From Bacillota bacterium (GTDB taxonomy: Bacteria > Bacillota > Clostridia > Ch29): a DNA stretch of 64,000 nt. The notes beneath the pieces were generated by a model. That model searched no databases. It saw only the letters and a list, made by a program, of their open reading frames with translations, and had not been told where the DNA came from. A program made the translations under genes and the position numbers. The stretch spans positions 21,469 through 85,468 of the forward strand of contig JAXGPT010000001.1 in NCBI GenBank assembly GCA_040766775.1, written 5' to 3'. Every line of letters begins with the position of its first letter. Position 1 is the first letter of the stretch. Positions 14,488 through 41,497 of the stretch are shown here, one piece after another.

Positions 14488-14501
<14 letters not shown>
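14175..14501 (+). CDS. V/A-type ATPase small coiled-coil peripheral-stalk subunit (G/H-like)
   Basis: Charged helical protein (IENIKDAEREAALMVAEARKKAAQMMKDGREKADAIIEKAQKKAE) heading the operon; start TTG 14175 behind GAGAGGTGGTG, alternative TTG 14130. Confidence 0.7.
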
Positions 14502-16920
<2,419 letters not shown>

Positions 16921-16933
16921 GGGAGTGTCCTAA

Positions 16934-17520: not shown

Positions 17521-17532
17521 GGAGGGACCCCA

Positions 17533-18541: not shown

Positions 18542-18868
18542 GGTAGGAGTTATTGGAGACAGGGATACGGTGCTTGCTTTCAAAGCCCTCGGCGTGGATA
18601 TCGCGCTCCCGGTTGTAAGCCCCGAGGAAGCAAAAAAAGCCCTAGCGGCGATGGCGAGGAAAAGTACGCGGTTATATTTGTAACCGAGCAGGTATCCGTC
18701 CAGATTGATGATATGATAGGCGAATACGAAAACGAAGTCCTTCCTGCCATAATACCGATACCCAACAACCAGGGTTCTCTTGGTGTAGGGCTGAAGAGGA
18801 TAAGAGAATCCGTTGAAAGGGCCATAGGAGTGGATATATTCTTCGAAAGAGAGGGAGAAGAGAATTGA
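18534..18868 (+). pseudogene. V/A-type ATPase subunit F; one frameshift near 18658 as assembled
   Basis: MYRVGVIGDRDTVLAFKALGVDI... continues as ...YAVIFVTEQVSVQIDD...LPAIIPIPN... if one G is added in the run at about 18658. Confidence 0.75.
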
Positions 18869-20643
18869 AACAAGGTAGAATAACCAAAGTTTCCGGTCCC
18901 CTGGTAATGGCTGAAGGCCTCGAAGACGCCAAGATGTTTGACGTTGTGGTGCTGGTAGGCAGCGGCCTCCCGATAGGGGAAATAATAGAGCTGAGAAGCG
19001 GTGTGGCCTCGATACAGGTTTACGAGGAGACCGCGGGCCTAAGCCCGGGAGACCCGGTAGAGGGCACCGGAGCCCCGCTAAGCGTTGAACTGGCTCCCGG
19101 TATGATGGAAGGTATCTTTGACGGTATACAGCGGCCGCTGGACCTTATAAAGGAAAAGGTTGGGGCGTATATCACCAGGGGCGTTGAAGTCCCGGCCCTG
19201 GACCATGAAAAGAAATGGGACTTCGTACCCACCGCAAAGGTCGGGGACGAGGTAACCGGCGGGGACATACTGGGGGTTGTCCAGGAAACCATACTGGTGG
19301 AGCACCGGGTAATGGTCCCCCACGGCATAAAGGGTAAAATCAAGAAAATAAACTCGGGCCCGGCCACCATTGTGGATACAATTGCCGAGATTGAAACGGA
19401 AGACGGGGTCAAAGAGGTGCAGATGCTGCAGAAGTGGCCGGTAAGAAAGATAAGGCCCTATAAGGAAAAACTGCCTCCCGTTCAGGCAATGACCACCGGC
19501 CAGAGGGTTATAGACATGTTCTTCCCGGTGGCAAAGGGCGGGGTTGCATGCATCCCGGGACCCTTTGGCAGCGGCAAGACGGTGGTTCAGCACCAGCTGG
19601 CCAAGTGGGCGGAAGCGGACATTGTTGTGTACATTGGCTGCGGCGAGCGCGGGAACGAAATGACCGACGTGTTGATGGAGTTCCCGGAGCTAGTGGACCC
19701 GAAGTCGGGGGAGCCGCTCATGAAGCGTACCGTGCTTATAGCCAACACCTCCAACATGCCGGTTGCGGCCAGGGAGGCATCGATATACACCGGCATAACC
19801 ATTGCCGAGTACTTCAGGGACATGGGCTACAGCGTCGCCCTGATGGCGGACTCCACGTCAAGGTGGGCGGAGGCCCTGAGGGAAATGTCCGGCCGTCTTG
19901 AGGAGATGCCCGGCGAGGAAGGTTACCCGGCTTACCTGGCATCCCGTATCGCCGAGTTCTACGAGCGGGCGGGAAGGGTTGTATGCGCCGGGAGCCAGCA
20001 CCGTGAAGGCTCGGTAACCGCCGTAGGAGCGGTATCACCCCCCGGCGGCGACCTGTCCGAGCCGGTTACCCAGGGTACGCTGAGGGTTGTCAAGGTGTTC
20101 TGGGCGCTGGACGCATCCCTTGCGTACAGCCGTCACTTCCCGGCGATAAACTGGCTTACCAGCTACTCGCTTTACCTGGATACGCTGGAGAACTGGCTGA
20201 AGGAAAACGTAAACCCCGAATGGGGCGAACTGCGTGCCGAAGCAATGAGGCTGTTGCAGCTTGAGTCGGAGCTGCAGGAAATAGTGCGGCTGGTGGGTAT
20301 AGACGCGCTGTCGGTCAAGGACAGGCTGGTACTGGAGGTAGCCAAGTCCATCAGGGAAGACTTCCTGCACCAGAACGCGTTCCACGAGGTGGACACCTAC
20401 GCGTCGCTCAAAAAACAGTTCGAGATGCTAAAGACAATCCTGGTGTTCTACCACGAGGCGGAAAAGGCCATGGAGGCGGGTGCTTCCTTCAAGGACGTGG
20501 AGACCCACCCGGTGAGGGAGAGGATATCCAGGATGAAATACTACAAGGAAGAAGAGATGGACAAGATAGAGGCTGTCAAGGACGAGGTAAAGAAGGCACT
20601 GGAAAGCCTGGTTTCGGAAGAAGGGGGTGGGCTGAGTGCTTAA
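18865..20643 (+). CDS. ntpA: V/A-type ATPase catalytic subunit A
   Basis: 592 aa, Walker [10 protein letters not shown], non-homologous insert typical of A subunits. Confidence 0.95.
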
Positions 20644-24001: not shown

Positions 24002-25255
24002 TTGCCAAAATTAGTAGTAGAGACCGGTCCCCCGCTGAAGGGGACTGTTAGGATAAGCGGCGCAAAAAACGCAGTACTGCCAATCATAGCTGCAAGCCTT
24101 TTATCAAGCGACAGGTGTATACTGGATGAAACCCCGATGCTGGACGACGTGGAGATAATGTGCGAAGTCCTGGTATCGCTTGGAGCGGATATTAAAAGGG
24201 TCTCGGGCGGCAGGATTGAGATAAATTCAAAGGGAATAGACAACCATGAAGCGCCCTACGAACTGGTACGGCGGATGAGGGCGTCCTTCCTTGTGATGGG
24301 TCCAATGCTGGCCCGGCTGGGGAAGGCAAGGATATCCCTGCCGGGGGGGTGCGCCATCGGAACAAGGCCCATAGACCTGCATCTTAAAGGCTTCAGGGCC
24401 ATGGGGGCGGAAATAACCCTCGGCTATGGTTACGTGGAGGCCAAGGCGGACCGGCTTAAGGGGGAAAGGATTTACCTGGACTTTCCCAGCGTAGGGGCCA
24501 CCGAAAACATTATGATGGCCGCCGCCCTGGCGGAGGGCAGGACGGTGATAGAGAACGCCGCCGAAGAGCCGGAGATAGTGGACCTGGCCAATTTTATCAA
24601 CAAAATGGGCGGCGAAATAAAGGGAGCCGGCACCGACACCATAAGGATAGACGGGGTAAAGGAGCTGGGCGGTGCGGTTCACACGGTGATTCCCGACAGG
24701 ATCGAGGCGGGGACCTTCATGGTTGCCGGGGCCATTACCGGGGGAGACATCATAGTGGATAATATAGTTTTATGCCATCTCATGCCCATTATAGCAAAGC
24801 TTAGGGAGGCCGGCGTGACGGTGGATGAGCTGGGCAACAGCGTGAGGGTGCGAAGCGATGGGAGGGTGGATGCGGTGGATATAAAAACGCTGCCCTACCC
24901 GGGGTTCCCGACCGATATGCAGGCGCAGATGATGGCCCTTATGAGCGTTGCCAGGGGCACCAGTATAATAATTGAAACGGTCTTTGACAACAGGTACATG
25001 CACGTAAACGAGCTGCGCAGGATGGGCGCTTGCATCAAAATAGACGGCAGGAGCGCAGTGGTACAGGGGGTGCCGGAGCTTACCGGGGCGAGGGTTAAGG
25101 CCACCGACCTGAGGGCGGGGGCTGCCTTGGTGCTGGCGGGCCTGGCTGCCCGGGGGCAGACCGAGATATACGACATCCACCACCTTGACCGGGGCTACCA
25201 TAACCTGGACAAAAAGATGCGGGACCTGGGCGCCCGTATAAAAAGGGTTGATTAA
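24002..25255 (+). CDS. murA: UDP-N-acetylglucosamine 1-carboxyvinyltransferase
   Basis: [21 protein letters not shown], active-site Cys loop [16 protein letters not shown]; TTG 24002 behind GGGAGGA (track ORF opens at 23918 inside ywmB). Confidence 0.93.
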
Positions 25256-25305
25256 GGGGACGGGGGCTGTGATTTAAAAATCACAGCCCCCGTCCCCTTA
25301 ATTTT
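25254..25305 (+). terminator. strong intrinsic terminator after murA
   Basis: 19-bp perfect stem GGGGACGGGGGCTGTGATT / AATCACAGCCCCCGTCCCC followed by TTTT. Confidence 0.85.
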
Positions 25306-25379
25306 CCAAAAAATTTTTTTTATTTTTAGAAGGATTATTCAAAAAGGCATAGAATACATATAGTATAATTGATATATAC

Positions 25380-25395
25380 CTCATGTATACATGAG
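25380..25395. promoter_or_regulatory. perfect 16-bp palindrome CTCATGTATACATGAG, candidate operator (GntR-type GT-Nx-AC core)
   Basis: Sits between/over TATAAT-like hexamers (25364-25369, 25397-25402, 25412-25417) upstream of the first island gene. Confidence 0.4.
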
Positions 25396-25508
25396 ATATA
25401 ATTTCCTTAGATATAATGCAGATTTGCTTGACGGCTTCAAACCCGATGATAAAGAGGGAGGGTTGTTTTTTAGCGTTATTTAATTTAAATCATAATGGAG
25501 GTGCAGTA

Positions 25509-26498
25509 ATGAGTATTGTTCTAATAAGCGGTGACCAAGTAAAAAAAGCAATAAGTGCAAAGGAAGCAGTAAAAGTAGCCGAGCAGGTGTACAGGGACCA
25601 TGGAAATGGTCAAGTGGTTATGCCTGCCAAAATAAATCTGAATATGGGTATAAATGGAGAATGGCCCCATTTCTATGGCTCGGCCAACTCCATGCCGGCA
25701 TACGTGGCTTCATTACAGGCCATGGGAATAAAATTCGTTTCCGGTTATACCAAAAATCCCGAAAAAGGATTACCTTTCATATTCGGAACCATAATATTGA
25801 CCGAGCCTGAAACCGGGCGCCCCATTGCTGTTATGGATGGGACATATGTGACCGCAATAAGAACGGGCGCTGCTACAGCTATTGCTGTAAAATACCTGGC
25901 AAGAAAAGACGCAGCTACGGTAGGAATAATAGGCGCGGGTCTCCAGGGCAGGATGCACATCATGGCATTGAACGAAGTTATGGATATCAAGGAAATCAGG
26001 ATAACGGATATTAACCAGGAAACAGCGGTTAAATGCGCGAAGGAAATGGCCGATATGCTGGGCCTGAATATAAAGGCTGTGGGATCGAACAAGGAAGTGG
26101 TGGAAGGCGCGGACGTTGTGGCTACAGTAACAGTGGCGGATGAACCGCTGGTCAGAAAAGAATGGCTGAAGAAAGGGGCATTGGTAGTAGCGGTGGGCTC
26201 GTATCAGGAATTGGATGAACAGATTCCACTGACTTGCGACAAGCTTATTGTTGACAGTTGGGCCCAAAATGCACACAGGGGCGAGCTTCTTAAGCTGGTG
26301 AAGGCGGGAAGAATTAGCGAAGACGATGTCTATTCAGAACTGGGATATATAGTATCAGGGAAAAAACCGGCAAGGGAAAGCGATGATGAACTCATATGTG
26401 CATGCTTGATAGGAATTGGTTCGCTGGATATAGGCACTGCCAAGTACGTATACGACAAGTTAGCGAATGGGGAAAACGTACCGGTATTTGACCTTTAG
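25509..26498 (+). CDS. ornithine cyclodeaminase / mu-crystallin family NAD(P) enzyme, paralog 1
   Basis: Family-typical N-terminus and Rossmann VGIIGAGLQGRMH; ATG behind GGAGGTG. Confidence 0.85.
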   Translation: MSIVLISGDQVKKAISAKEAVKVAEQVYRDHGNGQVVMPAKINLNMGINGEWPHFYGSANSMPAYVASLQAMGIKFVSGYTKNPEKGLPFIFGTIILTEPETGRPIAVMDGTYVTAIRTGAATAIAVKYLARKDAATVGIIGAGLQGRMHIMALNEVMDIKEIRITDINQETAVKCAKEMADMLGLNIKAVGSNKEVVEGADVVATVTVADEPLVRKEWLKKGALVVAVGSYQELDEQIPLTCDKLIVDSWAQNAHRGELLKLVKAGRISEDDVYSELGYIVSGKKPARESDDELICACLIGIGSLDIGTAKYVYDKLANGENVPVFDL

Positions 26499-26542
26499 TA
26501 CTGTACAAAAACAAAAATAACCAAAAAGGGTTGGGTGATGAC

Positions 26543-28108
26543 ATGACGTATTCAAACAGCTTTGACATCTTTGACATTATAGGTCCCATAATGATAGGAC
26601 CGTCGAGCTCCCATACTGCCGGCGCCGTAAGAATAGGCTTGGTTGCAGGGCAGCTTTGCGATTACAAGCCAAAGGAAATAACGGTATTATTCCATGGTTC
26701 ATTAGCCAGCACCTATTCGTTTCACAAAACCGATGTGGCGGTTGTGGCGGGAGTTACAGGGATGAAAGTTGACGATGAGCGCATAAGGGATTCTATTGAT
26801 ATTGCCAGGAAGGGCGGAATCAAAGTCAATGTAGACAAGGTAAACCTTGAGAACGCCCATCCCAGTACAATCATAATTGAAATTTTGGACCAGAACGGCA
26901 AAAAACAGGTTCTAAGGTCCGCTACAATAGGCGGAGGCAATATATACATTGAAGAGGTGAATGGTTACCGGGTAGATACCGATGGGAAGCAGGACTGTAT
27001 AGTTGGATTGACCACACAAAAAAGACCGGAATTTGAGATGCAGTTGTCGGGTATTGACGAGAAGCTGGAGATTGTATGTTTTGCCGACCAAGGTGAATGT
27101 TATTCGTTTAAACTGGAAAAGGCCAGTCCAATGGATGGCAGAATGTTGCAAAAGGTCAGAGACCTGCCCGGGACAAAAGAGGCGTTCTTGTTTAAGGCGG
27201 TGATGGCGCTTACCGAAAAAGGAAAGAGTTTCTTTAGGACATGCGAGGAGCTTGTTGCAAAATCCAAGGAGAACAATTGCCGGATAAGCGATGTGGTTAT
27301 TGCTTTTGACGCAGAAAAGTCAGGGAAAACAGAAGCGGAAGTCTTTGAATACATGAAACAAAATTATGTTGCAATGAGGGATTCCATCCAAAAAGGCCTG
27401 GAAAAAGAAAATGACCTTTTGGGCAATATTTTCAAAGGAAACGCAGCCAAGATGGATAGGTTTGCAAAATCGGGAAGGAGCATATGCGGCGTTACCGTGA
27501 CAGAAATTGTTAAGAATGCACTGGCGGTAATGGAAGTCAACGGCTCCATGGGTAAAATAGTAGCATGCCCGACGGCAGGGTCCGCAGGGACGGTACCCGC
27601 AGCGGTAATAACAGTAGCAGAAAAAAATAGTGTGCCCGAAGAAAAGGTTGTGAGGGCTCTCTTTACCGGGGCAGGGATAGGTGTCATCATAGCCGAGAAC
27701 GCAAGCATATCCGGAGCGGTAGGCGGGTGCCAAGCGGAATGCGGTTCAGCGTCGGCCATGGCAGCAGCTATTATTACGGATATGTTTGACGGTGACAGCG
27801 ACCAGGTTTTGAGTGCTGTTTCTCTCGCCCTTGGCAACGTTTTGGGTATGGTTTGCGACCCGGTGGCGGGGATGGTGGAGATACCCTGTATCCAAAGGAA
27901 TACGATAGCCGCGGTAAATGCGATAATTTGCGCCGAAATGGCCCTAGCAGGGGTTGATAGTGTTATACCGGCAGACGAGATGATAGGAGCCCTTAAAGAG
28001 GTGGGAGACCTTATGCATGTATCACTTAAGGATACGCTCGGGGCAGGAATATCCAATACTCCAACGGCAAGAAAGATAGAAGAGAGATTTTTCGGAAAAC
28101 GTGATTAG
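26543..28108 (+). CDS. sdaA: iron-sulfur L-serine dehydratase, fused beta-alpha form
   Basis: N-terminal FDIFDIIGPIMIGPSSSHTAGA (beta), then alpha blocks ACPTAGSAGTVPAA, SGAVGGCQAECGSASAMAAA, VCDPVAGMVEIPC. Confidence 0.85.
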   Translation: MTYSNSFDIFDIIGPIMIGPSSSHTAGAVRIGLVAGQLCDYKPKEITVLFHGSLASTYSFHKTDVAVVAGVTGMKVDDERIRDSIDIARKGGIKVNVDKVNLENAHPSTIIIEILDQNGKKQVLRSATIGGGNIYIEEVNGYRVDTDGKQDCIVGLTTQKRPEFEMQLSGIDEKLEIVCFADQGECYSFKLEKASPMDGRMLQKVRDLPGTKEAFLFKAVMALTEKGKSFFRTCEELVAKSKENNCRISDVVIAFDAEKSGKTEAEVFEYMKQNYVAMRDSIQKGLEKENDLLGNIFKGNAAKMDRFAKSGRSICGVTVTEIVKNALAVMEVNGSMGKIVACPTAGSAGTVPAAVITVAEKNSVPEEKVVRALFTGAGIGVIIAENASISGAVGGCQAECGSASAMAAAIITDMFDGDSDQVLSAVSLALGNVLGMVCDPVAGMVEIPCIQRNTIAAVNAIICAEMALAGVDSVIPADEMIGALKEVGDLMHVSLKDTLGAGISNTPTARKIEERFFGKRD

Positions 28109-28145
28109 TAAAATACGACTATATTACACAATGGAGGAGAGAAGA

Positions 28146-29228
28146 ATGAAAAACGTCAAATACGCAGTGTTAGGCGCGGGTAATGGAGGTCAATGCATAG
28201 CTGCCTATCTCAAATTAATGGGATATGAAGTCAGTTTATATGACAGGTATGAAGATGTAGTCAAACCGTTGATAGAAAAAGGCGGAATTGAGCTTAAAGG
28301 TGCTTCGCTGAACGGATTTGCAGAGATTGAGAATATCTCTACAAGTATAAAACAGGCGGTTGAGGGTAAGGATGTAATACTTGTGGTTTTGCCCGCCTTT
28401 GCCCATGAATACATCGCTGAAAACCTGGCCCCCGAACTGGTGGACGGACAAACAGTAATATTGTGCCCGGGTTCAACCGGGGGTGTCCTTGAATTCAAAA
28501 GGGTGCTGAAAGAGAAAAATTGTACCGCGGATATCAAGCTGGCAGAAACAAACAGTCTTTTCTATGCAGCCAGGCTCGAAAAACCGGGTGTTGCGGTTAT
28601 CGGCGGCATCAAAAAGGTTATGCCCATAGCAGCTCTTCCCACGTCGGATACCGATGAAATAATTGAGCTGTTGAAAGAACCCTACCCGCAGCTTGTGAGG
28701 GAACAGAACGTTCTGTCATCCGACATGAGCAATAACAACGCGATAATACACCCTTACCCGGTGATGCTAAATACCGGGTGGGTAGAAGAAACAAAGGGCG
28801 GCTTCAAATTTTATTATGACGGTATCAGCCGGACAATAGGAAGAATGGTGGAAGCCCTGGATGCGGAAAGGATTGAAATCTGTAAAGCGCTGGGCATAAA
28901 AGTAAAGGATATCAAGGAAAGCATGTTTGAATATTATAGTGCTTCCGGTGACACCATGTACGAAATAGTGCGCAATGTTAAAGGATATGCAATTGTTAAT
29001 GCTCCGCCAAAGCTTGACACTAGATTATTGACAGAGGATATACCGATGGGGCTGGTACCCATGACAGAGATAGCAAAACTGGTAAATGTAAAAACGCCCG
29101 TTATGGACCTGGCTATAGATTTAGCCTCGGCCCTATTGGAAAGAGACTTTCGGGCTGAAGGAAGAACGCTTGAGAAGATGGGTATAAGCGGAATGAGTAA
29201 AGAAGACCTGTTGGAGTATGTCAGATGA
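28146..29228 (+). CDS. NAD/NADP octopine/nopaline (opine) dehydrogenase family protein
   Basis: Rossmann KYAVLGAGNGGQCIAAYL plus C-terminal opine-DH helical domain pattern. Confidence 0.8.
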   Translation: MKNVKYAVLGAGNGGQCIAAYLKLMGYEVSLYDRYEDVVKPLIEKGGIELKGASLNGFAEIENISTSIKQAVEGKDVILVVLPAFAHEYIAENLAPELVDGQTVILCPGSTGGVLEFKRVLKEKNCTADIKLAETNSLFYAARLEKPGVAVIGGIKKVMPIAALPTSDTDEIIELLKEPYPQLVREQNVLSSDMSNNNAIIHPYPVMLNTGWVEETKGGFKFYYDGISRTIGRMVEALDAERIEICKALGIKVKDIKESMFEYYSASGDTMYEIVRNVKGYAIVNAPPKLDTRLLTEDIPMGLVPMTEIAKLVNVKTPVMDLAIDLASALLERDFRAEGRTLEKMGISGMSKEDLLEYVR

Positions 29229-29274
29229 GGTTTTAAGAAACGATCATGTTAAATAGGAAGGAGGGAAGAATAAC

Positions 29275-29937
29275 ATGGCGGCAAGAACGAGCACAATAGA
29301 AGTATACGACATAATAAAAGAAAAAATACTATTATGTGAATACGAGCCGGGACAGCTTGTCTCGGAAAAAGAGATAGTAGAAGAACTGGAAATAAGCAGA
29401 ACACCTGTCAGGGAAGCCCTAAATATCCTGAACGGCCAGGGCCTGCTCAAAGTAATACCCAAGAAGGGGGTACAGATTGCACCCCTTTCCATAAAAAGAA
29501 TAAAAGAGATATACGATATCAGGATGCTGCTGGAACCCTTTGCAGTAAAACTGGCGATTAAAAACCTGGGGCCGGACGATATTGAAAAACTTATAACACT
29601 AGATAAAAAACTAAGTAAAGAATATGAAGAAGAGGATGTATCCGAGGTGTTTAAGACCGGTATGGACATACACTTGTACGTTGCTTATTTGTCCGGCAAC
29701 GAAGTTGTTTATGAACTGATAAAACAGCTCAGGAGGGAAAGTCACAGGGGATATGTGTATTACTTGAAGCGATATCTTGACAAACGCCCCAGCAAAGAAA
29801 GTAGGGAGACAGAGATACGTCTTTCAAGAATTCACAATAAGTTTATAAAGGCCCTCGTTGAAGGAGACGAAAAGCTGGCGGTTGACTACCTAATAGAGGA
29901 CCTTACTACCATGAAGAGAGTACTGTCTGAATCATAG
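29275..29937 (+). CDS. GntR family transcriptional regulator (FadR/FCD subfamily)
   Basis: wHTH LVSEKEIVEELEISRTPVREAL plus helical FCD-like C-domain. Confidence 0.88.
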   Translation: MAARTSTIEVYDIIKEKILLCEYEPGQLVSEKEIVEELEISRTPVREALNILNGQGLLKVIPKKGVQIAPLSIKRIKEIYDIRMLLEPFAVKLAIKNLGPDDIEKLITLDKKLSKEYEEEDVSEVFKTGMDIHLYVAYLSGNEVVYELIKQLRRESHRGYVYYLKRYLDKRPSKESRETEIRLSRIHNKFIKALVEGDEKLAVDYLIEDLTTMKRVLSES

Positions 29938-29963
29938 GATTTTCTTAAAAAGGGGGTAGAAAG

Positions 29964-30491
29964 ATGAAGCCGGAGAGTGGTATTAAAAAGGCACTTAACA
30001 AATTGATTTCATTACAGAAAATGGTAACCGTTGTACTAGTGCTGGCTTTAACTGTTATGGTGGTTGTCCAGGTTGTATTGAGATACGTTTTCAAGGCACC
30101 GCTTATGGGGATCGAAGAAATGATGCTGTTTCCCATCATATGGCTTTATATGATAGGGGGGGCAAATGCTTCGCAGCAGAGGAATCATATTGAATGTGGT
30201 GTTATGACGGTATATATCAAGAGACCAATAGTTTTAAAGCTATTTAATGTGGTAAAAAGCTTAATTTCTATAGTTGTATGTATATGGTTGACATACTGGG
30301 CGTACTGGTTCTTTGATTACTCCCTGACCCGTTGGAAAGTAAGCGACCTTCTGTATATCCCGATGTTTTTCGGGGAAAGTGCGATGTTTATCGGGTTAAT
30401 TCTAATGCTTGTATATGCCGTAATTGAATTCATGGATTATGTAAAGGACTTTAGCAACAGTATATTTGCAGTTGATAAGGAGGAGATATAA
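29964..30491 (+). CDS. dctQ: TRAP transporter small permease (DctQ)
   Basis: 4-TM, about 175 aa, immediately precedes and abuts DctM. Confidence 0.85.
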   Translation: MKPESGIKKALNKLISLQKMVTVVLVLALTVMVVVQVVLRYVFKAPLMGIEEMMLFPIIWLYMIGGANASQQRNHIECGVMTVYIKRPIVLKLFNVVKSLISIVVCIWLTYWAYWFFDYSLTRWKVSDLLYIPMFFGESAMFIGLILMLVYAVIEFMDYVKDFSNSIFAVDKEEI

Positions 30492-31792
30492 TGCTTACCA
30501 TTGTCCTTCTGGATGTTATTTTACTTGTTGTTCTCCTCATAATGAGTGTGCCTCTTCCATATTGCTTTGGCGGAGCACTGCTGTTTATGAGTATATTCGG
30601 CGGCGTTTCAATGAAAAGCATGATGCTCTGGGGTTTCAATCAGATGATAAACCCCGTGCTGCTTGCCAGTCCGCTTTTTATCCTCGCAGGATCCCTTATG
30701 GGCGGAAGTGGTATAGCGAAACGCCTCCTGGACTTTGTTGACGCCTTTGTGGGAAGAATAAAAGGAGGACTGGGCGTTATTAGCGTTGTTACCTGTGCGC
30801 TGATAGGTGCGATCTCTGGTAGCGGTTTCACCGGCGTGGCGGCTACGGCTCCAATCATGGTTCCTAGGATGGTTGAGCAGGGTTATCCCAGAGGATATTC
30901 AACTGCCTTGATAACTGTTTCGTCAATACTGGGACTTCTAATACCCCCAAGTGTAATCATGATTTTGTACGGGTGGGTTACCGAGACGTCAATCCTGGCT
31001 TGCTTTCTTTCAACGATAGGGCCCGGGATTGCGATTACAATTACCCTCTCTACTATTAACATGATTTGGGCAAGAAAATTTGACCTGGTTCTGGAGCCTC
31101 CGATGCCCGCTTCAGAAAAATTCAGGCAGGTAATAAACCGTTCATGGGGTGCACTGCCAGCTATATTAATGCCAGTTATTATACTTGGCGGCATATACGG
31201 AGGAGTTTTCACTCCTACCGAGGCAGCCGGTGTTGCAGCGTTCTATGCAATCCCAATAGGTTTTTTGGTTTACAAAACCATGGACAGGAAGAGTTTCTAC
31301 GAAATGACAGTTGAGGCATCGACATCCATAGGTGCTATCATGACAATGATCGTGTTCTGCCTAATGCTGAGCCAGACATATGTTATGCTGCAGGTGCCCC
31401 AGGCCATTATTGACCTGTTCTTCGGCCTTACCCAAAACAGGACGCTTATGTTGATAATTATAAATTTATTCCTGTTCCTGGTGGGCATGATAGTAAACGA
31501 CGCTACAGGTATGATACTGGTTGCACCGCTGCTTCTTCCGCTGGCCCAGGAACTGGGAATACATCCGATACATTTTGCATCCATAATGGGAGTTAACCTG
31601 GCCATGGGTGGGGTTACGCCGCCCTATGCAAGTATCCTGTACTTGGGCATGCGAGTAGGGAAGTGCAGTTTCAATGAAATACTAAAGCCTACGCTGATAT
31701 TCTTGATTTTGGGTTATATACCGATTGTGTTTCTTACAACCTTCTGGCCGGATTTATCACTTTTCCTGCCAAGACTTTTCGGTTTCCTGTAG
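30491..31792 (+). CDS. dctM: TRAP transporter large permease (DctM)
   Basis: 433-aa polytopic protein with DctM family pattern. Confidence 0.9.
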   Translation: MLTIVLLDVILLVVLLIMSVPLPYCFGGALLFMSIFGGVSMKSMMLWGFNQMINPVLLASPLFILAGSLMGGSGIAKRLLDFVDAFVGRIKGGLGVISVVTCALIGAISGSGFTGVAATAPIMVPRMVEQGYPRGYSTALITVSSILGLLIPPSVIMILYGWVTETSILACFLSTIGPGIAITITLSTINMIWARKFDLVLEPPMPASEKFRQVINRSWGALPAILMPVIILGGIYGGVFTPTEAAGVAAFYAIPIGFLVYKTMDRKSFYEMTVEASTSIGAIMTMIVFCLMLSQTYVMLQVPQAIIDLFFGLTQNRTLMLIIINLFLFLVGMIVNDATGMILVAPLLLPLAQELGIHPIHFASIMGVNLAMGGVTPPYASILYLGMRVGKCSFNEILKPTLIFLILGYIPIVFLTTFWPDLSLFLPRLFGFL

Positions 31793-31808
31793 AGGCCTGT
31801 ACGCAGTC

Positions 31809-31857
31809 TAATAAATTCTTTGAGATAGCGGTCTTAGCGGTCTTAAAGAGTTTATTA
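31809..31857 (+). other. AT-rich 17-bp inverted repeat with an internal AGCGGTCTT direct duplication
   Basis: TAATAAATTCTTTGAGA ... TCTTAAAGAGTTTATTA (two G-U positions in RNA); loop holds AGCGGTCTTAGCGGTCTT; no U-tract on + strand. Confidence 0.5.
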
Positions 31858-31884
31858 TAAAAAAACAACAAAGGAGGAGTAATA

Positions 31885-32889
31885 GTGTCAGGTAAAGTAG
31901 AAACAGTACTGTTAAGCCAAGAAGACATCAAAAAAGTAATTACCATGAAAGACGTAGTAGAGATAGTTGACAAGACCTTTAAGGGGTTTGGCGAAGGCAC
32001 CGTCATTAACCCGACAAAAGTTAACCTGGACCTAGGTGAGACGGCCCCATATCCGCCCTACCAGGGATTTATGAACGCAATGCCCGCCTATGTAGGTTGG
32101 CTGGATACCGCGGGCATCAAATGGGCCGGGGGGTTCTTGGGCGAGCGTAAAAAACTCGGTTTCCCATACATTACTTCCATGATACTGCTGATTGATCCGA
32201 AAATCGGGCACTTTAGGGCTGTTATGGACGGTGCCCTCATTACAAACCTTAGAACGGGAGCCCAAACAGCGACTGCACTGAAGTATATGTTTGATAAAAA
32301 ATCAATACGCATCGGTCTGTTTGGTGCAGGCATGCAGGGGCATACTCAAACCATGGCAATCTCTGAAGTATTTGACATCGAAGAACTCAGGGTATATGAC
32401 ATTAACAAGGAAGCAAGCCTGAGATTTGCAGAAAATATGAAGGATACGGTAAAGGGCGAAATAGTAGTCGTTGATGCTCCCGAAGAAGCAGCTAAGGGGG
32501 ATGCAGTAATATGTGTCACCCAGTCTAAGGAAAAGTTCGTGAAGGATGAGTGGATTAAGCCGGGAATGGTACTTTTCCCGATGGGCTCCTACCAAGAATG
32601 CGAAGACGCATTTATACTGAATGCCGACAAGATTATAGTCGACCATATCGGGCAAACCCTGCACAGGGGAGCCCTTGCGGAACTTAACGAAGCGGGCAAG
32701 ATTACCGAAGATAATATTTATGCTACAATAGGCGAACTTGCTGCTGGACTAAAGCCCGGGCTGATAGGTAAAGACGAGCGCTACCTCTGCATTCCGATAG
32801 GCACAGGCGCCATGGATATTGCAGTGGCAACCGTTGCATATCAAAAGGCGGTTGAAAAAGGGCTGGGCGGAAAGTTTGCCTTTGTATAA
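31885..32889 (+). CDS. ornithine cyclodeaminase / mu-crystallin family NAD(P) enzyme, paralog 2
   Basis: Same architecture as paralog 1; Rossmann IGLFGAGMQGHTQ; GTG start behind AGGAGGAG. Confidence 0.85.
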   Translation: MSGKVETVLLSQEDIKKVITMKDVVEIVDKTFKGFGEGTVINPTKVNLDLGETAPYPPYQGFMNAMPAYVGWLDTAGIKWAGGFLGERKKLGFPYITSMILLIDPKIGHFRAVMDGALITNLRTGAQTATALKYMFDKKSIRIGLFGAGMQGHTQTMAISEVFDIEELRVYDINKEASLRFAENMKDTVKGEIVVVDAPEEAAKGDAVICVTQSKEKFVKDEWIKPGMVLFPMGSYQECEDAFILNADKIIVDHIGQTLHRGALAELNEAGKITEDNIYATIGELAAGLKPGLIGKDERYLCIPIGTGAMDIAVATVAYQKAVEKGLGGKFAFV

Positions 32890-32910
32890 AAACCAGAGGG
32901 AGGGAAAAAA

Positions 32911-33939
32911 ATGAAAAGACTAAAACTGATAAGCCTGGCAATTTGCGTAGCTATGTTGGTTGTAAGCCTTGCAGCATGCTCTTCATCCAAACCGGGAGAA
33001 AGCAAGGAAGGCGAAGTAACGGTGTGGAAAATGGCCCATATAAGGCCGGCCGGTTCGGTATCTGACCTGGACTTCCAGGCCTTTGTAAAGGACGTGGAAG
33101 AGAGAAGTAACGGCAGTCTGAAGATCGAGCTTTATCCTGCCAGCCAGTTGGGGGACTATACGGTGGTACAGGAGCGTGTGAGCATAGGCGACGTTGAAAT
33201 GCAGTGCGCTTCGGTTGGAACAAACCTGGACAAGAGCTTTGGTATAACAAGTGCTCCTTACCTGGTTGAAAACTGGGAGCAGGCGCGAAAGGTATACGCC
33301 AGCGACAGCACATTGAACACAGCTATGGCTGAAATACTTGACAAGAACAATATGACGCTAATAGCCGTATATCCATTATATTTCGGAGGAATCGCCCTGG
33401 TGGACGAACCAAAGGAGCCGCAAAATGCGGATGTTCCGAAGAATATAAAGATAAGGGTTCCCCCAATAAAATCCTTTGAAAAGACAGCAGAAGCATTGGG
33501 CTATTTAGCGACTCCCCTGCCATTCTCCGAGACCTTTACCGCTATGCAGACCGGTATGGTTAACGGGGCTATAGGCGCAGGCGCGGAAGGGTATTATTCG
33601 AACTTCAAGGACCTGATTAAATGGTACCTGCCGCTTAATGACCACTTTGAAATGTGGTACATGTATGTAAACAAGGATGCATTTGAAAGATTATCGCCCG
33701 AACAGCAGGAAGCCCTGACTGGAGCAGCGAAAGCAATGGAAGAAAAGCGTTTCATCGATGCGGAAGCACAGGAAAAGGAATTTGAAGACCTGCTTGCCGA
33801 GGCAGGGGCAACTATTGTTGAGTTCAGCGAGGAAGACCTTGCAGCCTTTGCCGAGAAAGTTAGAAGAGAAGTATGGCCGCTGGTAAAGGGAGACTATGGA
33901 GAAGAACTGTTTGAAAAAATTGTAAGTGAAATAGAATAG
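32911..33939 (+). CDS. dctP: TRAP transporter substrate-binding lipoprotein (DctP family)
   Basis: Lipobox LAACSSS, DctP-type periplasmic binding fold pattern. Confidence 0.85.
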   Translation: MKRLKLISLAICVAMLVVSLAACSSSKPGESKEGEVTVWKMAHIRPAGSVSDLDFQAFVKDVEERSNGSLKIELYPASQLGDYTVVQERVSIGDVEMQCASVGTNLDKSFGITSAPYLVENWEQARKVYASDSTLNTAMAEILDKNNMTLIAVYPLYFGGIALVDEPKEPQNADVPKNIKIRVPPIKSFEKTAEALGYLATPLPFSETFTAMQTGMVNGAIGAGAEGYYSNFKDLIKWYLPLNDHFEMWYMYVNKDAFERLSPEQQEALTGAAKAMEEKRFIDAEAQEKEFEDLLAEAGATIVEFSEEDLAAFAEKVRREVWPLVKGDYGEELFEKIVSEIE

Positions 33940-33975
33940 AGCCCGATGTAAGAGACAGAATATCGATTAATAACT

Positions 33976-34016
33976 CCATAACAAACACCAAGGCTTAACC
34001 TTGGTGTTTGTTATGG
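33976..34016 (+). other. perfect 18-bp intercistronic hairpin after dctP (no U-tract)
   Basis: CCATAACAAACACCAAGG-CTTAA-CCTTGGTGTTTGTTATGG. Confidence 0.7.
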
Positions 34017-34058
34017 TCAACCCGGCAACAGCCTGCAGTTGTAAAGGAGGTGCATTTA

Positions 34059-35345
34059 ATGCAGTTGGAAGTTGGTAAAGTCATGGTCCGGGATATACGT
34101 TTTTCCGACAGAACCAGTATGGAAGCGGGGGTACTTCATATTGACAAAAATGAACTTGTTAAGTATCTTAAGGAAGATGTCAATATAAAGGATGTGGATA
34201 TAGACATCGCAAGGCCAGGAGAATCAGTCCGCATTATTCCGGTGAAGGATATTATCCAGCCAAGGATTAAGGTTAAAGGCTGCGGGCAGGTTTTTCCTGG
34301 CTTTATCAGTGACGTTGATTCGGTCGGAGAAGGAGTTACTCATGTATTGGAAGGATGTGCCGTTGTAACTTGCGGGAAGATTGTTAATTTCCAGGAAGGC
34401 ATAATAGACATGAGCGGTCCCGGGGCCAAATATAATAGTTTTTCGGCTTTGAATAATGTTGTTCTACTTATTGAACCGGTCCCGGGACTGACAAAACACG
34501 CCCATGAGGCAACAGTAAGGCAGGCCGGACTGAAGGCTGCCTACTACCTGGGAAAAGCGGCGCAAAATGTACAACCGGACGAAAAAGAGACATTCACTTA
34601 CAATACTTTGGCAGAGTCGGCACGGCTTTACCCGGATTTGCCGAGGGTAGCGTATGTTTATATGATACAAAGCCAGGGTTTGATGCATGATAATTATATA
34701 TATGGACTGGACGCCAAAGGCATACTCCCAACCTAATCTCACCCACTTGAGGTAATTGACGGTGCGATAGTAAGCGGCAACTGTGCGGCCCCATGCCACA
34801 AAAACACTACGTTTCATCATCAGAACAACCCTGTTATCATGGACCTTATGCGAAGGCATGGAAAGGAACTGTGCTTTGTAGGGGTTATTATTACCAATGA
34901 AAGCACGATGCTTTCATACAAGAAACGGGCTGCCCATTTTACCCAAAAACTAGCCAGGCTAATTGAAGCGGAAGGGGCAATTGTGACCGAAGAAGGAGGC
35001 GGAATCCCGAGACCGATTTGATGCTGAATTGTAAACTGCTCGAAAAATCCGGCATTAAAACCGTACTGATTACCGATGAATACGCGGGCCGTGACGGCAG
35101 GTCACAGGGTTTGGCAGGATATTACAGCCGAAGCGGATGCCGTAATAACCAACGGAAACGGAAACGAGCTTATAACATTGCCTCCGATGGAACGAACTAT
35201 AGGTTTTCTTGAAAGCGTTGAAATAATAACAGGCGGATTCAGCGGCAGCCTGAATCCCGATGGAAGCATCACCGTAGAACTGGCAAGCATAATGGGGTCA
35301 TTGTGCGAATTGGGTTATGAGCGCCTGACAACCAGGCTTAAATAG
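34059..35345 (+). pseudogene. GrdE-like proprotein (glycine/sarcosine-reductase protein B alpha/beta type); frame broken as assembled, likely artefact
   Basis: Full-length resemblance to GrdE incl. ...EVIDGAIVSGNCAAPCHKNTTFHHQNNPV... (Asn-Cys processing site). In-frame TAA at 34734, indels near 35003 and 35116. Pieces 34059-34736, 34839-35021, 35018-35212, 35076-35345. Confidence 0.75.
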
Positions 35346-35359
35346 GGAGGTGAACTGCG

Positions 35360-36662
35360 GTGAAAAAGCTTAAGTTTGCACACTATATTAATCAGTTTTA
35401 CGGACAAATCGGTGGGGAGGACAAGGGCGACCAGCCACCGGTTGTACATGAAGGGGCAGTTGGACCCGGCAGTGGATTGGAAAAGCTCTTTGGAGAAGAA
35501 GGAGAAATTATTGCAACGGTGATATGCGGCGATACTTACTTTGCAGAAGAATCCGGAAAAAGCTGTGGAAGATATAACGGATATACTAAAAAATTTGATT
35601 TTGACTGTTTTATTGCCGGGCCCGCCTTTAATGCCGGAAGGTACGGCATAGCCTGCGGTGCTATCTGCAGGGCGGTCCAGGAACGGCTGGGGCTCCCCAC
35701 TGTGACTTCAATGTACACCGAAAACCCGGGAGCGGAGATATATGCAAAGGATATTTATGTGCTAGAGACCGGCAAGTCGGCTGCTGCAATGAAAGACGCG
35801 CTGCCTGTCATTGCTGAATTTGCCCTGAAACTTGCCAGGGGCGGAGATAGGTTTCCCGGAAGATGAGGGATACATTCCGCAGGGCAGAAGGGTAAACGTA
35901 TTTGCAGATAAAACTGGCGCGGTAAGGGGAGTGGATATGCTGCTTTCCAAGCTGAAGGGAGAGCATTTTACAACCGAACTGCCTATGCCTGTTTTCGATC
36001 GTGTGCCCCCGGCACCGGCGGTAAAAAATCTAGCCCGGGCAAAGATTGCGCTTGTGACATCGGGAGGGGTTGTGCCCAGGGGAAATCCTGACCGCATAGA
36101 GGCGGCAAACGCTACCAAATATGGCAAGTATTCCATTGAGGGTATAGACGACCTGGTTAAGGATGAGTATATAACCGTTCATGGCGGATATGACCCGGTG
36201 TATGTACTTGAGGACCCGGACCGGGTGCTCCCGGTTGATGTAATGAGACTGCTTGAAAAGGAAGGAGTTATAGGAAAGCTGTTTGAATACTTTTATTCCA
36301 CCGTGGGTAACACCACCGCTGTTAGCAGCGCGAAGCGTTTCGGAGAAGAGATTGGTAGGGATTTGCTGGCAAATGGTGTGGACGGAGCAATACTGACCTC
36401 TACCTGAGGCACCGACACCCGTTGCGGAGCAACGATGGCTAAGGCTATTGAAGAGCTGGGTATTCCTGCGGTGCATGTGTGTACCATTGTTCCGATTTCT
36501 GAAACTGTGGGCGCAAACAGAATACTGCCGGGGGTTGCCATACCCAATCCCACCGGCAATCCTAACCTAAGCCAGCATGACGAGTTTATGCTGCGCAAAA
36601 ACCTCATGTTAAAAGCTCTTGATTCTTTGAAGAGCGCAATAGAAGAGCAAACAGTTTTTTAG
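35360..36662 (+). pseudogene. GrdB-like selenoprotein (reductase protein B gamma type) with in-frame UGA at 36405-36407; one frameshift near 35835-35866 as assembled
   Basis: ...GVDGAILTST-TGA-GTDTRCGATMAKAIEELGIPAVHVCT... matches the U-containing active-site context of GrdB/GrdF/GrdH. Reading continues in frame to 36662. Confidence 0.8.
36408..36440 (+). promoter_or_regulatory. candidate bacterial SECIS hairpin downstream of the UGA
   Basis: CGUUGC-GGA-GCAACG (36420-36434), extendable by CC/GG with a 2-nt bulge; starts about 11 nt after UGA. Confidence 0.4.
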
Positions 36663-36684
36663 TAAAAGATATGGGAAGTGTTCA

Positions 36685-36730
36685 AAAAGTAGTATAGTGC
36701 GGCCGGGCAAGGCCGCACTATACTACTTTT
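36685..36730. terminator. bidirectional terminator between grdB-like gene and ribU
   Basis: 20-bp perfect stem AAAAGTAGTATAGTGCGGCC / GGCCGCACTATACTACTTTT, A/T runs on both sides. Confidence 0.85.
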
Positions 36731-36758
36731 AACAAAATAGTATTCAGTTTTTACTCTA

Positions 36759-37328
36759 TTATTCGTGCTGGCGGGCTTCGCCGCCGATGGGTTCAATCCT
36801 TAACACTCTTGCCACCGATTTGTATACAAGTACCGTAAGGGCCGAGTTTGCAGTCGCCTTTATAAGGTTAAAGGGTACTATGATGGGCACAATCATTGCC
36901 TTTACCGCCTCAACGGGTACTCCCAGGAACTTGGTGGTGAAATAAAGGTTAAGCGGTATCATTATAAGGGTCATGCCAAGGGTGCCCGCCGCAAGGGCCA
37001 AAACAGCCCCTTTGAAAGTGTGTACCTTCCTGTAAATAAGGCCTGCCACCAAAACCATGGTGCCGGTGGCGACCATATGCATCACCGCTCCGATCCAGCC
37101 GCTCCCCGCGCTGACGGTGGTGGCCTGGAACAGCGAAACCGCGGCGGTTATCAATAGTCCTGCGCCCGGGCCGTACAAAAATGCGCCTATCAGGGCGGGA
37201 ACGTCCCCCGGTTCGTATTCTAAAAAGGGTGCCGATGGAATGATTGGAAATCGGATGACCATCATTAGCAGTATTGACAGTGCGGAAAGCAGTGCCAGTT
37301 TTACAATTTTGTTCAAGTCTTGATTCAT
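36759..37328 (-). CDS. ribU: ECF transporter S component, riboflavin type (RibU-like)
   Basis: Six-TM S-component pattern and an FMN riboswitch directly upstream. Confidence 0.8.
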   Translation of the reverse strand: MNQDLNKIVKLALLSALSILLMMVIRFPIIPSAPFLEYEPGDVPALIGAFLYGPGAGLLITAAVSLFQATTVSAGSGWIGAVMHMVATGTMVLVAGLIYRKVHTFKGAVLALAAGTLGMTLIMIPLNLYFTTKFLGVPVEAVKAMIVPIIVPFNLIKATANSALTVLVYKSVARVLRIEPIGGEARQHE

Positions 37329-37345: not shown

Positions 37346-37515
37346 AAAATTAAAATTCCCTGCAATATAATCCCAGGGAAATAAAAAAATCAATCTTCTC
37401 CCATCCAGACTATACTGTCGGCCCCGGAATCGCACCGGGTCAGCGTGAGCTCGCGGGCTAGCGGACCTTATCCGCATTACCGCCGGTCGGGAATTTCACC
37501 CTGCCCTGAAGATTA
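37346..37515 (-). promoter_or_regulatory. FMN riboswitch (RFN element) with terminator expression platform
   Basis: Minus strand reads ...CUUCAGGGCAGGGUGAAAUUCCCGACCGGCGGUAA...AGCCCGCGAGC...GGUGCGAUUCCGGGGCCGACAGUAUAGUCUGGAUGGGAGAAG, then hairpin UUCCCUG/CAGGGAA + U-run (37346-37380). Confidence 0.92.
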
Positions 37516-37658
37516 TATTTGGTTTTCCTAAAAAATATAATAGCATCGAGACATTGCGATGTCAAGGGCCGGGAAAAGTATCCCGGCGGTATCATACTTT
37601 AATTTAATGGCACAATAAAGTATAATAGGATAAAGTACCAAGGATAGGAGGGAGCGAA

Positions 37659-40149: not shown

Positions 40150-41497
40150 ATGACAAAAACGGGAAAGAATCCCGAGTTCGCGGCCGGCGGGGCGGCAGGG
40201 GATACAAGGCACAAGATAGGGCTTGCCGGGGCCGTGGAGATAATAATCGGCACGGTAATAGGCTCGGGAATATACATAATGATAGGTCCGCTGGCGGCCG
40301 CCGCAGGTCCCGGCCTTTTTTTGTGCTACCTTATTGCGCTTGTCGTTGCGGTGGCGGCGTCAATTTGTTATGCCCAGGTGGCATCCGTCTTCCCGGCCAC
40401 CGCCGCCACTTACCGTTACACCAAAATGTTCTACGGCGACTTTATAGGGTTTGTAGTGGGCTGGTTCAGGCTGGTGGGATCTTTTTGCGGCCTGGCACTG
40501 ATGAGCAGCGGGTTCGCCGATTACGTGTCGGTGTACCTGGCGGTGGACAAAAGGATTACCGCCGCCGCGGCGCTGACGGTTATCCTGGTAGTCAACCTGC
40601 TGGGCATCAAAACCACCCAAAGGGTTGTGCAGTTCCTTGTTATAGCAGTCATGGGCGGCCTCGCGCTGTTCTGCGGTTTCGGTGCGCCGCACGTAAGGCT
40701 AAGCAACCTCACCCCGTTGTGGGGAGCGGGAGCAGGCACCATATTAAAGGGCAGCATGTCAGCCTTTTATGCGTACACCGGGCTGTATATTGTGGCCGAG
40801 GTGGGGGACGAGGTGCAAAACGCCCAGAAGAACATTCCACGGTCCATTATTATTTCATCGGCGGTAGTGGGCCTTTTGTACCTTGGTACAACGCTTACCT
40901 TTGCCGGGGACTGGGCTGGGACACCATCAAGGCCTGAGGCCGACAAAACCAGGCGGCGGGGCTAATGCTAAACCCATGGGTGGCGGCGCTGGTGCAGTTG
41001 GGGGCCATTCTGGCCATTATCACCCCGATGAATGCATCCTATATGGCAAGCAGCAGGTCGCTGTACAGCCTGGCGGTGGACGGAATGATGCCGCGTATTC
41101 TTTCAAGGCTCAACCGGTACAATGTTCCGGGGCTTGCGACAATAACTATATACATTCCCGCGCTGCTTGTAGTGGTGCTGGACCTACCGGTACTTTTCCT
41201 GGGCACCGTAAGTTCCATAGTACTGTTAAGCAGTATGACCCTTGTGGCCGGGGCATGTCTTATGCTGAAGAGTACCCGGAGGAGTTCCAAAGGGCTCCCT
41301 TCAGGCTGGCGGATACCGCCCTTAAGATACTGCCGGTTTTCACGGTAATGGCCGCGGTGCTGCTGACGATAGTCTCGCTGGTGGAGGATTTGCTTATACT
41401 GTACTCCTTCGGTTTCTGGACGCTGGCGGGGTGGGTATACTATTACGTATGGCAAAGGAGCCGCAAGCGCAGGGCACAACTTAAGCCTACCCGTTAA
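40150..41497 (+). pseudogene. APC superfamily amino-acid permease; at least 2 frameshifts (about 40900, about 41250) as assembled
   Basis: N-terminal GTVIGSGIYIMIGP signature; pieces 40150-40965, 40965-41348, and the last part of 40883-41497 join into one 12-TM permease. Confidence 0.8.

Follow-up and report, generated by a model that had tools for sequence, protein, structure and literature searches.

A 64,000-nucleotide stretch of the genome of a Bacillota bacterium (Clostridia; Ch29), taken from contig JAXGPT010000001.1 of assembly GCA_040766775.1 and referred to below as the window, harbors a block of ten genes (25510–36661) that bioinformatics analysis indicates to be a functional, horizontally acquired catabolic operon. 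The block encodes a tripartite ATP-independent periplasmic (TRAP) importer, two NAD(P)-dependent enzymes of the ornithine cyclodeaminase (OCD)/mu-crystallin family, an L-serine dehydratase (SDH), an opine dehydrogenase (OpDH), a GntR-family regulator and, at its end, a pyruvoyl proprotein and a selenoprotein that resemble the GrdE and GrdB subunits of glycine reductase protein B (hereafter, island GrdE and island GrdB). Judging by sequence, this pair belongs to a large, separate and widespread protein-B lineage whose active site has been remodelled, and the energy source that the operon opens up to anaerobes is probably not glycine itself but an unusual N-substituted amino acid. We put at about even the chances that the operon provides a protein B specific for an amino acid with a secondary amine (opine or imino type), with GrdA, GrdC/GrdD and thioredoxin encoded elsewhere in the genome. 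The features of the reductase pair are as follows.

34059–35345, forward strand: GrdE-like pyruvoyl proprotein, 428 amino acids (aa) when intact (PF09338, 628.8 bits, positions 1–426 of 426).
35360–36662, forward strand: GrdB-like selenoprotein, 434 aa when intact (PF07355, 538 bits), with the motif T-S-T-U-G-T-D-T-R-C.
36405–36407, forward strand: in-frame TGA, the predicted selenocysteine (Sec, U) codon, kept in more than 80 homologues.
36408–36445, forward strand: bacterial selenocysteine insertion sequence (SECIS) element (Rfam RF01990 SECIS_4, 38.8 bits; gathering score, 38).

The SECIS assignment relies on the covariance-model match and the conserved TGA, because the fold energy of the region is no better than that of shuffled sequences (z = −0.65). 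Island GrdE keeps the Asn-Cys self-cleavage site and reads SGN/CAAPCHK (cleavage at the slash), as compared with SGN/CVSACDK in canonical GrdE. The CAAPCHK motif was found in all of the 40 clade members, versus CVSACDK in 76 canonical sequences, and 22 alignment columns discriminate between the two types, including four residues next to the pyruvoyl cysteine (VSACD replaced by AAPCH). In island GrdB, six columns that are invariant or nearly so among 70 canonical GrdB proteins are replaced, including the one three residues after the selenocysteine (U+3; C353D) and the first residue of AHGG, which becomes VHGG. The Sec motif thus reads U-G-T-D-T-R-C, versus U-G-T-C-T-R-C in 70 out of 70 canonical proteins, and does not fit the UxxCxxC pattern. 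In the metagenome loci (L091–L210), the partners of CAAPCHK-type GrdE carry Gly (the largest group), Asp or Ser at U+3, and never Cys; Cys was found at this position only in a CAAPGHK subgroup, beside a fusion protein with GntR and argininosuccinate-lyase-like parts.

The island proteins are 56–60% identical to the canonical ones. Neighbor-joining analysis separated the canonical sequences from the CA[AG]P[CG]HK group in 50 out of 60 bootstraps; strict monophyly of the 'CAAP' sequences failed in the bootstrap test, with two CAGPCHK variants nesting within the group. Nesting inside bona fide glycine-specific GrdB, which the first-pass annotation of the window had regarded as speaking against its proposal, was not seen, the pair being part of a clade of its own in which the active-site motifs are changed. 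GrdF-type genes were present in 0 of the fetched loci, so GrdF/GrdG sequences lie outside the motif comparison. A PDB sequence search with island GrdE and island GrdB yielded no related solved structure. In the public databases, labels for these proteins are generic: glycine/sarcosine/betaine reductase component B, 'sarcosine reductase', or 'beta-aspartyl peptidase'.

Matches in Pfam, NCBIfam and PDB confirmed all ten genes of the island with the content, order and shared strand that the first-pass annotation had given; they are found on the forward strand at 25509–36662, between the murA terminator and the hairpin that separates them from the convergent ribU gene. The AT-richness, which had been judged by eye, also holds when computed, as the G–C content is 45.7% in the island versus 53.4% and 52.1% in the flanks. 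At third codon positions it is 45–50% in the island genes versus 60–75% in the flank genes, and the 11.4-kb stretch of lowest G–C content in the 64-kb window begins at 25501. Locus L008 carries the ten genes in identical order (74–76% nucleotide identity), flanked there by genes for an AraC-type regulator and an integrase, and the homology of the window to L008, L136 (87%), and L133 (91%) ends exactly at 25510 and 36661. The shift in composition, together with block ends that stay the same from one genomic context to another, indicates that the block is a discrete, horizontally moved operon.

The association of the reductase pair with its partner genes extends well beyond this arrangement. With one genome scanned per species, at least 78 loci were obtained, the window's own species not being among the matches listed. 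Among these matches, all of the loci whose GrdE does not exceed 60% identity to the window type (73 loci) have the canonical context of GrdX, TrxB, TrxA and GrdA, whereas in those with a GrdE of 60–83% identity TRAP and/or OCD genes take the place of these genes. In L088 (76% GrdE identity), the genes for SDH, OpDH, the regulator with an FCD domain, DctQ, DctM, OCD and DctP are found on one strand, and those for a sigma54 activator, GrdX, GrdE and GrdB, followed by a second OCD, on the other, nine shared functions being rearranged. L007 and L011 (~80%) have the order sigma54 activator-GrdX-GrdE-GrdB-OCD, followed by another gene (a sodium:solute symporter in L007), L089 has OCD-sigma54-GrdX-GrdE-GrdB-LIV-type ATP-binding cassette (ABC) transporter-GrdA, and L009 combines two TRAP systems and an OCD with a fused GrdE/GrdB-like protein. 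This fusion (L009, 12947–14698) is a 583-aa protein with Gly_reductase and GRDB parts, encoded directly after a GrdE/GrdB pair of the window type.

When metagenomes were scanned at the DNA level for the pattern GNCAAP[CG]HK, about 115 loci encoding window-type GrdE were obtained, from sediment, bioreactor, fermentation and gut samples, and many of them keep OCD, SDH-like, OpDH, TRAP and GrdX genes even at 51–58% GrdE identity. In raw counts over loci of at least 8 kb, 62 non-canonical versus 64 canonical loci contain OCD (24 vs. 0), OpDH (15 vs. 0), TRAP (36 vs. 0), SDH-like (16 vs. 1), GrdA (5 vs. 56) and Trx (7 vs. 62) genes. Two cultured strains carry members of the clade, Clostridium sp. 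1001271st1 H5 and Clostridiaceae bacterium 35-E11 (CP121688). The neighborhood is conserved, both as the ten-gene order of L008 and as linked functions that recur in many rearranged loci, joining the pair to an importer for carboxylates or amino acids and to imine-forming, NAD(P)-dependent dehydrogenases, and the coupling of a protein-B-type selenoenzyme with opine dehydrogenase, OCD-family enzymes and a TRAP system, which the first-pass annotation had pointed out, is kept across these rearrangements. In agreement with its remark that no such pathway was known to it, a literature search found no paper on the clade, its motifs or the gene neighborhood. The direct abutment of the two reductase genes, by comparison, had been read as a sign of likeness to the GrdG/GrdF and GrdI/GrdH pairs, and loses this meaning since grdE and grdB also abut in canonical operons (e.g., L025).

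Two further observations concern the composition of these modules. In L012–L014 (e.g., L013, 4565–6307, reverse strand), the above-mentioned fusion of a GntR DNA-binding domain and an argininosuccinate-lyase-like domain is a protein of 580–588 aa encoded divergently from DctQMP-GrdX-GrdE-GrdB ('SN-U-G-T-C' subgroup), a candidate sensor for an N-substituted amino acid. Extra Fe-S dehydratases are found in some modules: AcnX (PF04412) in L120 (4059–5336) and a 423-aa, SDH_alpha-only (CyuA-like) protein in L108 (5148–6419), the latter type being present in several metagenome loci.

The absence of grdA, grdC, grdD, trxA and trxB, noted by the first-pass annotation, was upheld by tblastn across the 64-kb window, and likewise no grdX was found by tblastn in the island or anywhere in the window. 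Relatives of the pair do show ties to the common Grd machinery. L090 carries a complete operon with a D-type GrdB, in the order CN_hydrolase-DctPQM-amidohydrolase-GrdE-GrdB-GrdA-GrdX-TrxB-TrxA-GrdC-GrdD; a D-type GrdB adjoins TrxB-TrxA-GrdA in L195 and GrdA in L089; and a UBA3546 metagenome-assembled genome (MAG) carries both an OCD-linked paralog (L011) and a canonical grd operon (L020). By analogy, this pattern fits substrate-specific proteins B that would share proteins A and C.

As read from the window, both reductase genes are broken by seven indel events at 34731–35842. Four of them are found in the GrdE gene (34731, 34747, 35000 and 35116), where an in-frame TAA is created, and three in the GrdB gene (35547, 35587 and 35842, the last being an uncompensated 2-nt deletion). 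Looking up the exact sequences of DctP and a 95%-identical GrdE brought up near-identical assemblies, among them a 2.6-Mb contig (FZPS01000165.1 of GCA_900198705.1; 98.6% identity over the island) and MAG GCA_050952605.1. Eight other assemblies of the same species (L001–L006, L215 and L216; 98.6–99.9% identical) carry the same ten genes intact, and in all eight the GrdE gene encodes 428 aa, and the GrdB gene 434 aa, interrupted at the Sec TGA only. L006 is the closest of these assemblies; over 11.8 kb, four substitutions, none of them at 34–37 kb, and the seven indel events separate it from the window. Similar window-only indels occur elsewhere in the contig. At 4600–7650 they are dense and shred the essential prfA (release factor 1) gene, prmC and a DUF1385 gene (positions 1–12.5 kb contain 107 indel bases, about 95 of them at 4–8 kb), while Rho and Sua5, located beside this patch, are 100% identical to those of the other assemblies. 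Further window-only indels, at 37676, 37704 and 40905–41270, break a nitroreductase gene and a gene for a spore-germination-type amino-acid permease, both of which are intact in L001–L004. Taken together, these comparisons indicate that the contig contains patchy zones of indel errors. An exact look-up of the window protein at 59060–60370 yielded no matching record.

The ratio of nonsynonymous to synonymous substitution rates (dN/dS) of the two reductase genes is 0.09–0.15 within the species and 0.04–0.05 against the 83%-identical relative L008, values that indicate strong purifying selection on both. The frameshifts to which the first-pass annotation drew attention are real in the window sequence, and its suspicion of a decayed locus is weakened by the eight intact assemblies. 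They are very probably assembly errors, since the same contig has indel patches in the essential prfA and prmC. That the two genes are true pseudogenes in the strain of the window, and the locus is decaying, would agree with the concentration of seven indel events, the uncompensated deletion and the in-frame TAA in only 1.1 kb. It is nevertheless highly improbable in view of the intact genes in all of the other same-species assemblies, the lack of any substitution among the indels relative to L006, the like indels in prfA, prmC, and the nitroreductase and permease genes, and the purifying selection.

The remaining genes and the signals that delimit the island are listed below.

25255–25298, forward strand: murA intrinsic terminator with a 20-bp stem, the upstream edge of the island.
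25509–26498, forward strand: OCD/mu-crystallin family enzyme 1 (OCD1), 329 aa (PF02423, 249.9 bits).
26543–28108, forward strand: fused Fe-S L-serine dehydratase with beta and alpha domains, 521 aa (PF03315, PF03313, PDB 4RQO).
28146–29228, forward strand: opine dehydrogenase of the N-(1-D-carboxyethyl)-L-norvaline dehydrogenase (CENDH) type, 360 aa (PF02317, 155 bits).
29275–29937, forward strand: GntR-family regulator with an FCD ligand domain, 220 aa (PF00392, PF07729).
29964–30491, forward strand: TRAP small membrane subunit DctQ (PF04290).
30491–31792, forward strand: TRAP large membrane subunit DctM (PF06808, 281.5 bits).
31885–32889, forward strand: OCD/mu-crystallin family enzyme 2 (OCD2), 334 aa (PF02423; PDB 1VLL/1OMO, 166 bits).
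32911–33939, forward strand: TRAP solute-binding lipoprotein DctP, its signal peptide having the lipobox LAAC (PF03480, NF037995).
33976–34016: hairpin with a 19-bp stem in the dctP-grdE spacer, a possible attenuator or RNA-processing site.
36694–36730 (approximately): GC-rich hairpin between the convergent grdB-like and ribU genes, read from the sequence; likely a bidirectional terminator and the downstream edge of the island.

The last of these hairpins was missed by the T-run terminator rule. In the dctP-grdE spacer, relatives have a sigma54 activator and GrdX in place of the hairpin. The first-pass annotation had assigned two genes to the OCD family, and both do belong to PF02423, but their nearest relatives are archaeal alanine dehydrogenase and Delta1-pyrroline-2-carboxylate (Pyr2C) reductase, and not cyclodeaminases. 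For OCD1, the nearest solved relatives are the Pyr2C reductase of T. litoralis (PDB 6T3E, 204 bits) and then archaeal alanine dehydrogenase (1OMO, 187 bits), and its score with the NCBIfam model ala_DH_arch (253 bits) is under the cutoff. OCD2 is 40% identical to OCD1, and its nearest solved relative is the A. fulgidus alanine dehydrogenase. Ornithine cyclodeaminase sensu stricto was considered for both paralogs and rejected (130 and 75 bits on PRK07589; cutoff, 350).

The alpha part of the serine dehydratase, the start of which was taken from the gene calls in the near-identical locus L001, passes TIGR00718 sda_alpha (299.5 bits; cutoff, 243.2). The opine dehydrogenase matches the Arthrobacter N-(1-D-carboxyethyl)-L-norvaline dehydrogenase (PDB 1BG6) over its full length (residues 4–352; 277 bits; E-value, 1.9e-81), and its predicted NAD-binding N-domain and Octopine_DH helical domain place it in the CENDH type. 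DctP, DctQ and DctM together make a complete TRAP transporter gene set. The PDB relatives of DctP are weak, the best being an isethionate-binding DctP (96 bits).

Comparison with known systems places the island pair closest to glycine reductase protein B of Stickland Clostridia, with which it shares the full-length PF09338/PF07355 architecture, the Asn-Cys site, the UGA position and the SECIS element. It differs from that protein in forming a separate clade, in having AAPCH for VSACD and UxxDxxC for UxxCxxC, and in lying inside a TRAP/OCD/opine dehydrogenase/serine dehydratase operon with no adjacent grdA, trx or grdCD. In Peptoclostridium acidaminophilum, substrate-specific E/B-type pairs share proteins A and C. 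Like GrdG/GrdF and GrdI/GrdH, the island pair is an extra E/B-type pair whose genes abut and can stand apart from grdA/CD, but it scores under the NCBIfam cutoffs of GrdG/GrdF and GrdH (for island GrdB on the GrdH model NF040795, 538 bits; cutoff, 775; a true GrdH from a second pair in L077, 835), does not match the GrdF motif and has another conserved neighborhood. With D-proline reductase PrdA/PrdB, it would share a pyruvoyl- and selenocysteine-based reductive C-alpha-N cleavage of a secondary amine, as proposed here for the island pair, and classical Stickland metabolism likewise pairs an OCD-family enzyme (ornithine to proline) with D-proline reductase. The similarity to PrdA/PrdB is weak, however, and the domain architecture different, with the island clade tied to GrdA/GrdCD/GrdX.

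The octopine/nopaline regions of Agrobacterium combine an opine-cleaving enzyme (a flavin oxidase), ABC uptake and ornithine cyclodeaminase. The island likewise places an OCD-family enzyme in a single transferable block with a dedicated importer and a dehydrogenase that cleaves secondary amines, but has an anaerobic host, an NAD-type dehydrogenase, TRAP uptake, OCD proteins similar to alanine dehydrogenase and Pyr2C reductase, and an added selenoenzyme reductive branch. A use of the Grd scaffold on a non-glycine substrate of the form X-CH2-COO- has been described for the fluoroacetate reductase FarE-type Grd homologues of Synergistota (PMC10838667). The match of the island pair to the FarE model NF053623 is 181 bits (cutoff, 675), and the neighborhood is unrelated.

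Under the favored reading, that of a protein B for a secondary-amine amino acid, the TRAP importer would take up an opine-type N-carboxymethyl or N-carboxyalkyl amino acid, or a related imino acid. Island GrdE would cleave itself at Asn-Cys to give a pyruvoyl group that binds the amino group of the substrate, and the selenocysteine of island GrdB would attack the alpha-carbon and break the C–N bond. The carboxyalkyl group would be handed to GrdA and on to GrdC/GrdD, the genes of which would lie in other parts of the genome, with the formation of an acyl phosphate and ATP, while thioredoxin/NADPH would supply electrons to the reductase. The opine dehydrogenase, the serine dehydratase and the dehydrogenases of the OCD family would oxidise the freed amino-acid part to pyruvate and NH3, and these steps would regenerate the NAD(P)H used by the reductase, which amounts to an internal Stickland reaction. 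As a concrete substrate we would prefer, speculatively, a strombine-like compound or an N-carboxymethyl-amino-acid. The minimal gene set of the relatives (a transporter, OCD and GrdX-GrdE-GrdB) would be explained because the reductase would act directly on an N-carboxymethyl-type amino acid and free the amino acid for the dehydrogenase.

Several points weigh against this reading. The substrate class is a prediction from sequence, DctP has only distant solved relatives, and the changes in the motifs indicate a different active site and say nothing of the ligand bound. Island GrdB narrowly passes the equivalog cutoff of glycine reductase B (TIGR01917; 616.7 bits against 602.2, canonical proteins reaching 736–744), so glycine may be its substrate, and it matches the published GrdB motif AHGGxD...RV[IL]PxD...TxGNxTxV at all but one residue (A replaced by V). 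GrdA, GrdC, GrdD, TrxAB and SelABCD are assumed to act in trans, the search for the grd and trx genes having covered the 64-kb window, and the lineage of the window lacks the GrdX gene that accompanies most relatives. Finally, the co-occurrence counts given above ignore kinship, and are lower bounds since many of the contigs end early.

The first-pass annotation had proposed that the opine dehydrogenase frees glycine for an ordinary glycine reductase, which fits poorly with the replacement of residues that are invariant in 70–76 canonical GrdE/GrdB proteins. In this scheme, an imported pyruvate-derived opine would be split by the opine dehydrogenase into pyruvate and glycine, alanine or serine, the island pair would be a glycine-specific protein B, and OCD-type alanine dehydrogenases and the serine dehydratase would handle alanine and serine. 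Every enzyme of the window would be accounted for: the opine dehydrogenase appears to be a true CENDH-type enzyme, archaeal alanine dehydrogenase is the best or second-best match of both OCD paralogs, the serine dehydratase is above the cutoff of the L-serine ammonia-lyase alpha subunit, and island GrdB is just above that of glycine reductase B. The scheme is still rather unlikely, as the replaced residues are located right at the pyruvoyl and Sec sites, a genome can also hold a canonical glycine reductase (L011 and L020), the minimal relatives have OCD, a transporter and the reductase pair with no opine dehydrogenase, and this enzyme is found in only 15 out of 62 non-canonical loci. Doubtful, too, is a cyclic imino-acid route, in which the Fe-S dehydratase would act on hydroxylated imino acids (3-hydroxyproline-like or hydroxyectoine-like), an OCD enzyme would reduce the product to a proline, pipecolate or ectoine type, and the island pair would open the ring at C-alpha-N. 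The best solved relative of OCD1 is the T. litoralis Pyr2C reductase, AcnX (PF04412), a family that includes cis-3-hydroxy-L-proline dehydratase, is found inside the module in L120, SDH_alpha-like dehydratases are added in other loci, and some relatives have SSF-type (sodium:solute symporter) or LIV-type amino-acid transporters. The combination of a dehydratase, an OCD-family reductase, TRAP and GntR also recalls the proposed hydroxyectoine module EutB/EutC/UehABC (the ectoine_eutC model gives 208 bits, under the cutoff). Against such a route, the architecture is that of GrdE/GrdB and not PrdA/PrdB (67 and 92.5 bits on TIGR04480/TIGR04483; cutoffs, 700/300), relatives are tied to GrdA, GrdC, GrdD and GrdX, which handle a carboxymethyl group in the known systems, the dehydratase looks like a genuine L-serine dehydratase, and no racemase or known hydroxyproline gene is found in the window.

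Another explanation is that the pair is a divergent sarcosine (N-methylglycine) reductase GrdG/GrdF, next to the genes of an unrelated pathway. Several clade members are labelled 'sarcosine reductase' by JGI, the top raw NCBIfam scores come from the GrdF and GrdG models, and the L090 operon has CN_hydrolase and amidohydrolase genes as neighbors, a setting that could suit a route through N-carbamoylsarcosine/hydantoin. These scores are, however, far below the cutoffs (641 vs. 800 bits for island GrdB on the GrdF model NF040794 and 567 vs. 780 bits for island GrdE on the GrdG model NF040793), and canonical glycine-type proteins score higher on the same models (719–749 and 656–678 bits, respectively). 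The published GrdF motif IHGGYDR...TTGTGT (PMC9751293) is absent from the window protein, which reads VHGGYDP...TVGNTTAV. The conserved but rearranged linkage to OCD, OpDH, SDH and TRAP genes speaks against chance neighbors as well, which leaves a sarcosine reductase very unlikely.

For the clade as a whole, a wider form of the favored reading can be put forward only tentatively. The CA[AG]P[CG]HK / Uxx[D/G/S]xxC clade would be a further, widespread and so far unrecognised Grd substrate class that reductively cleaves N-carboxymethyl/N-carboxyalkyl or imino amino acids, dispenses with the first Cys of UxxCxxC, and gives substrate-level ATP by an internal Stickland reaction with an OCD-family oxidative branch, in digesters, sediments and guts. 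Strombine-like compounds and glycation products of the carboxymethyl-lysine type are speculative examples of its substrates.

Other features were observed in the window outside the island. The ECF (energy-coupling factor) riboflavin transporter gene ribU (36759–37328, reverse strand), which converges on the island, is preceded by a flavin mononucleotide (FMN) riboswitch (RF00050, 123.7 bits, 37389–37517, reverse strand). The V-type ATPase operon region (12722–19842) is 90.8% identical to L211/L212, compared with 97.3–97.7% for positions 1–12470, a mosaic relatedness along the contig. A low-G–C patch at 55462–57076 (reverse strand; G–C content 0.37 at 56–57 kb) encodes a DUF5131 protein and contains a 283-aa open reading frame with no Pfam match; the patch could represent a small mobile insertion.

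The selenium-dependent Stickland reductases known for a long time act on glycine, sarcosine, betaine and D-proline, and a Grd homologue that reduces fluoroacetate has recently joined them (PMC10838667). If the favored reading is true, anaerobic amino-acid fermentation would gain, through the island pair and its relatives, a new class of electron acceptor and a new reaction that yields ATP. GrdB would then be able to dispense with the first Cys of UxxCxxC, which would constrain the catalytic mechanism, and the database labels 'glycine' or 'sarcosine' reductase would be corrected for many genes.

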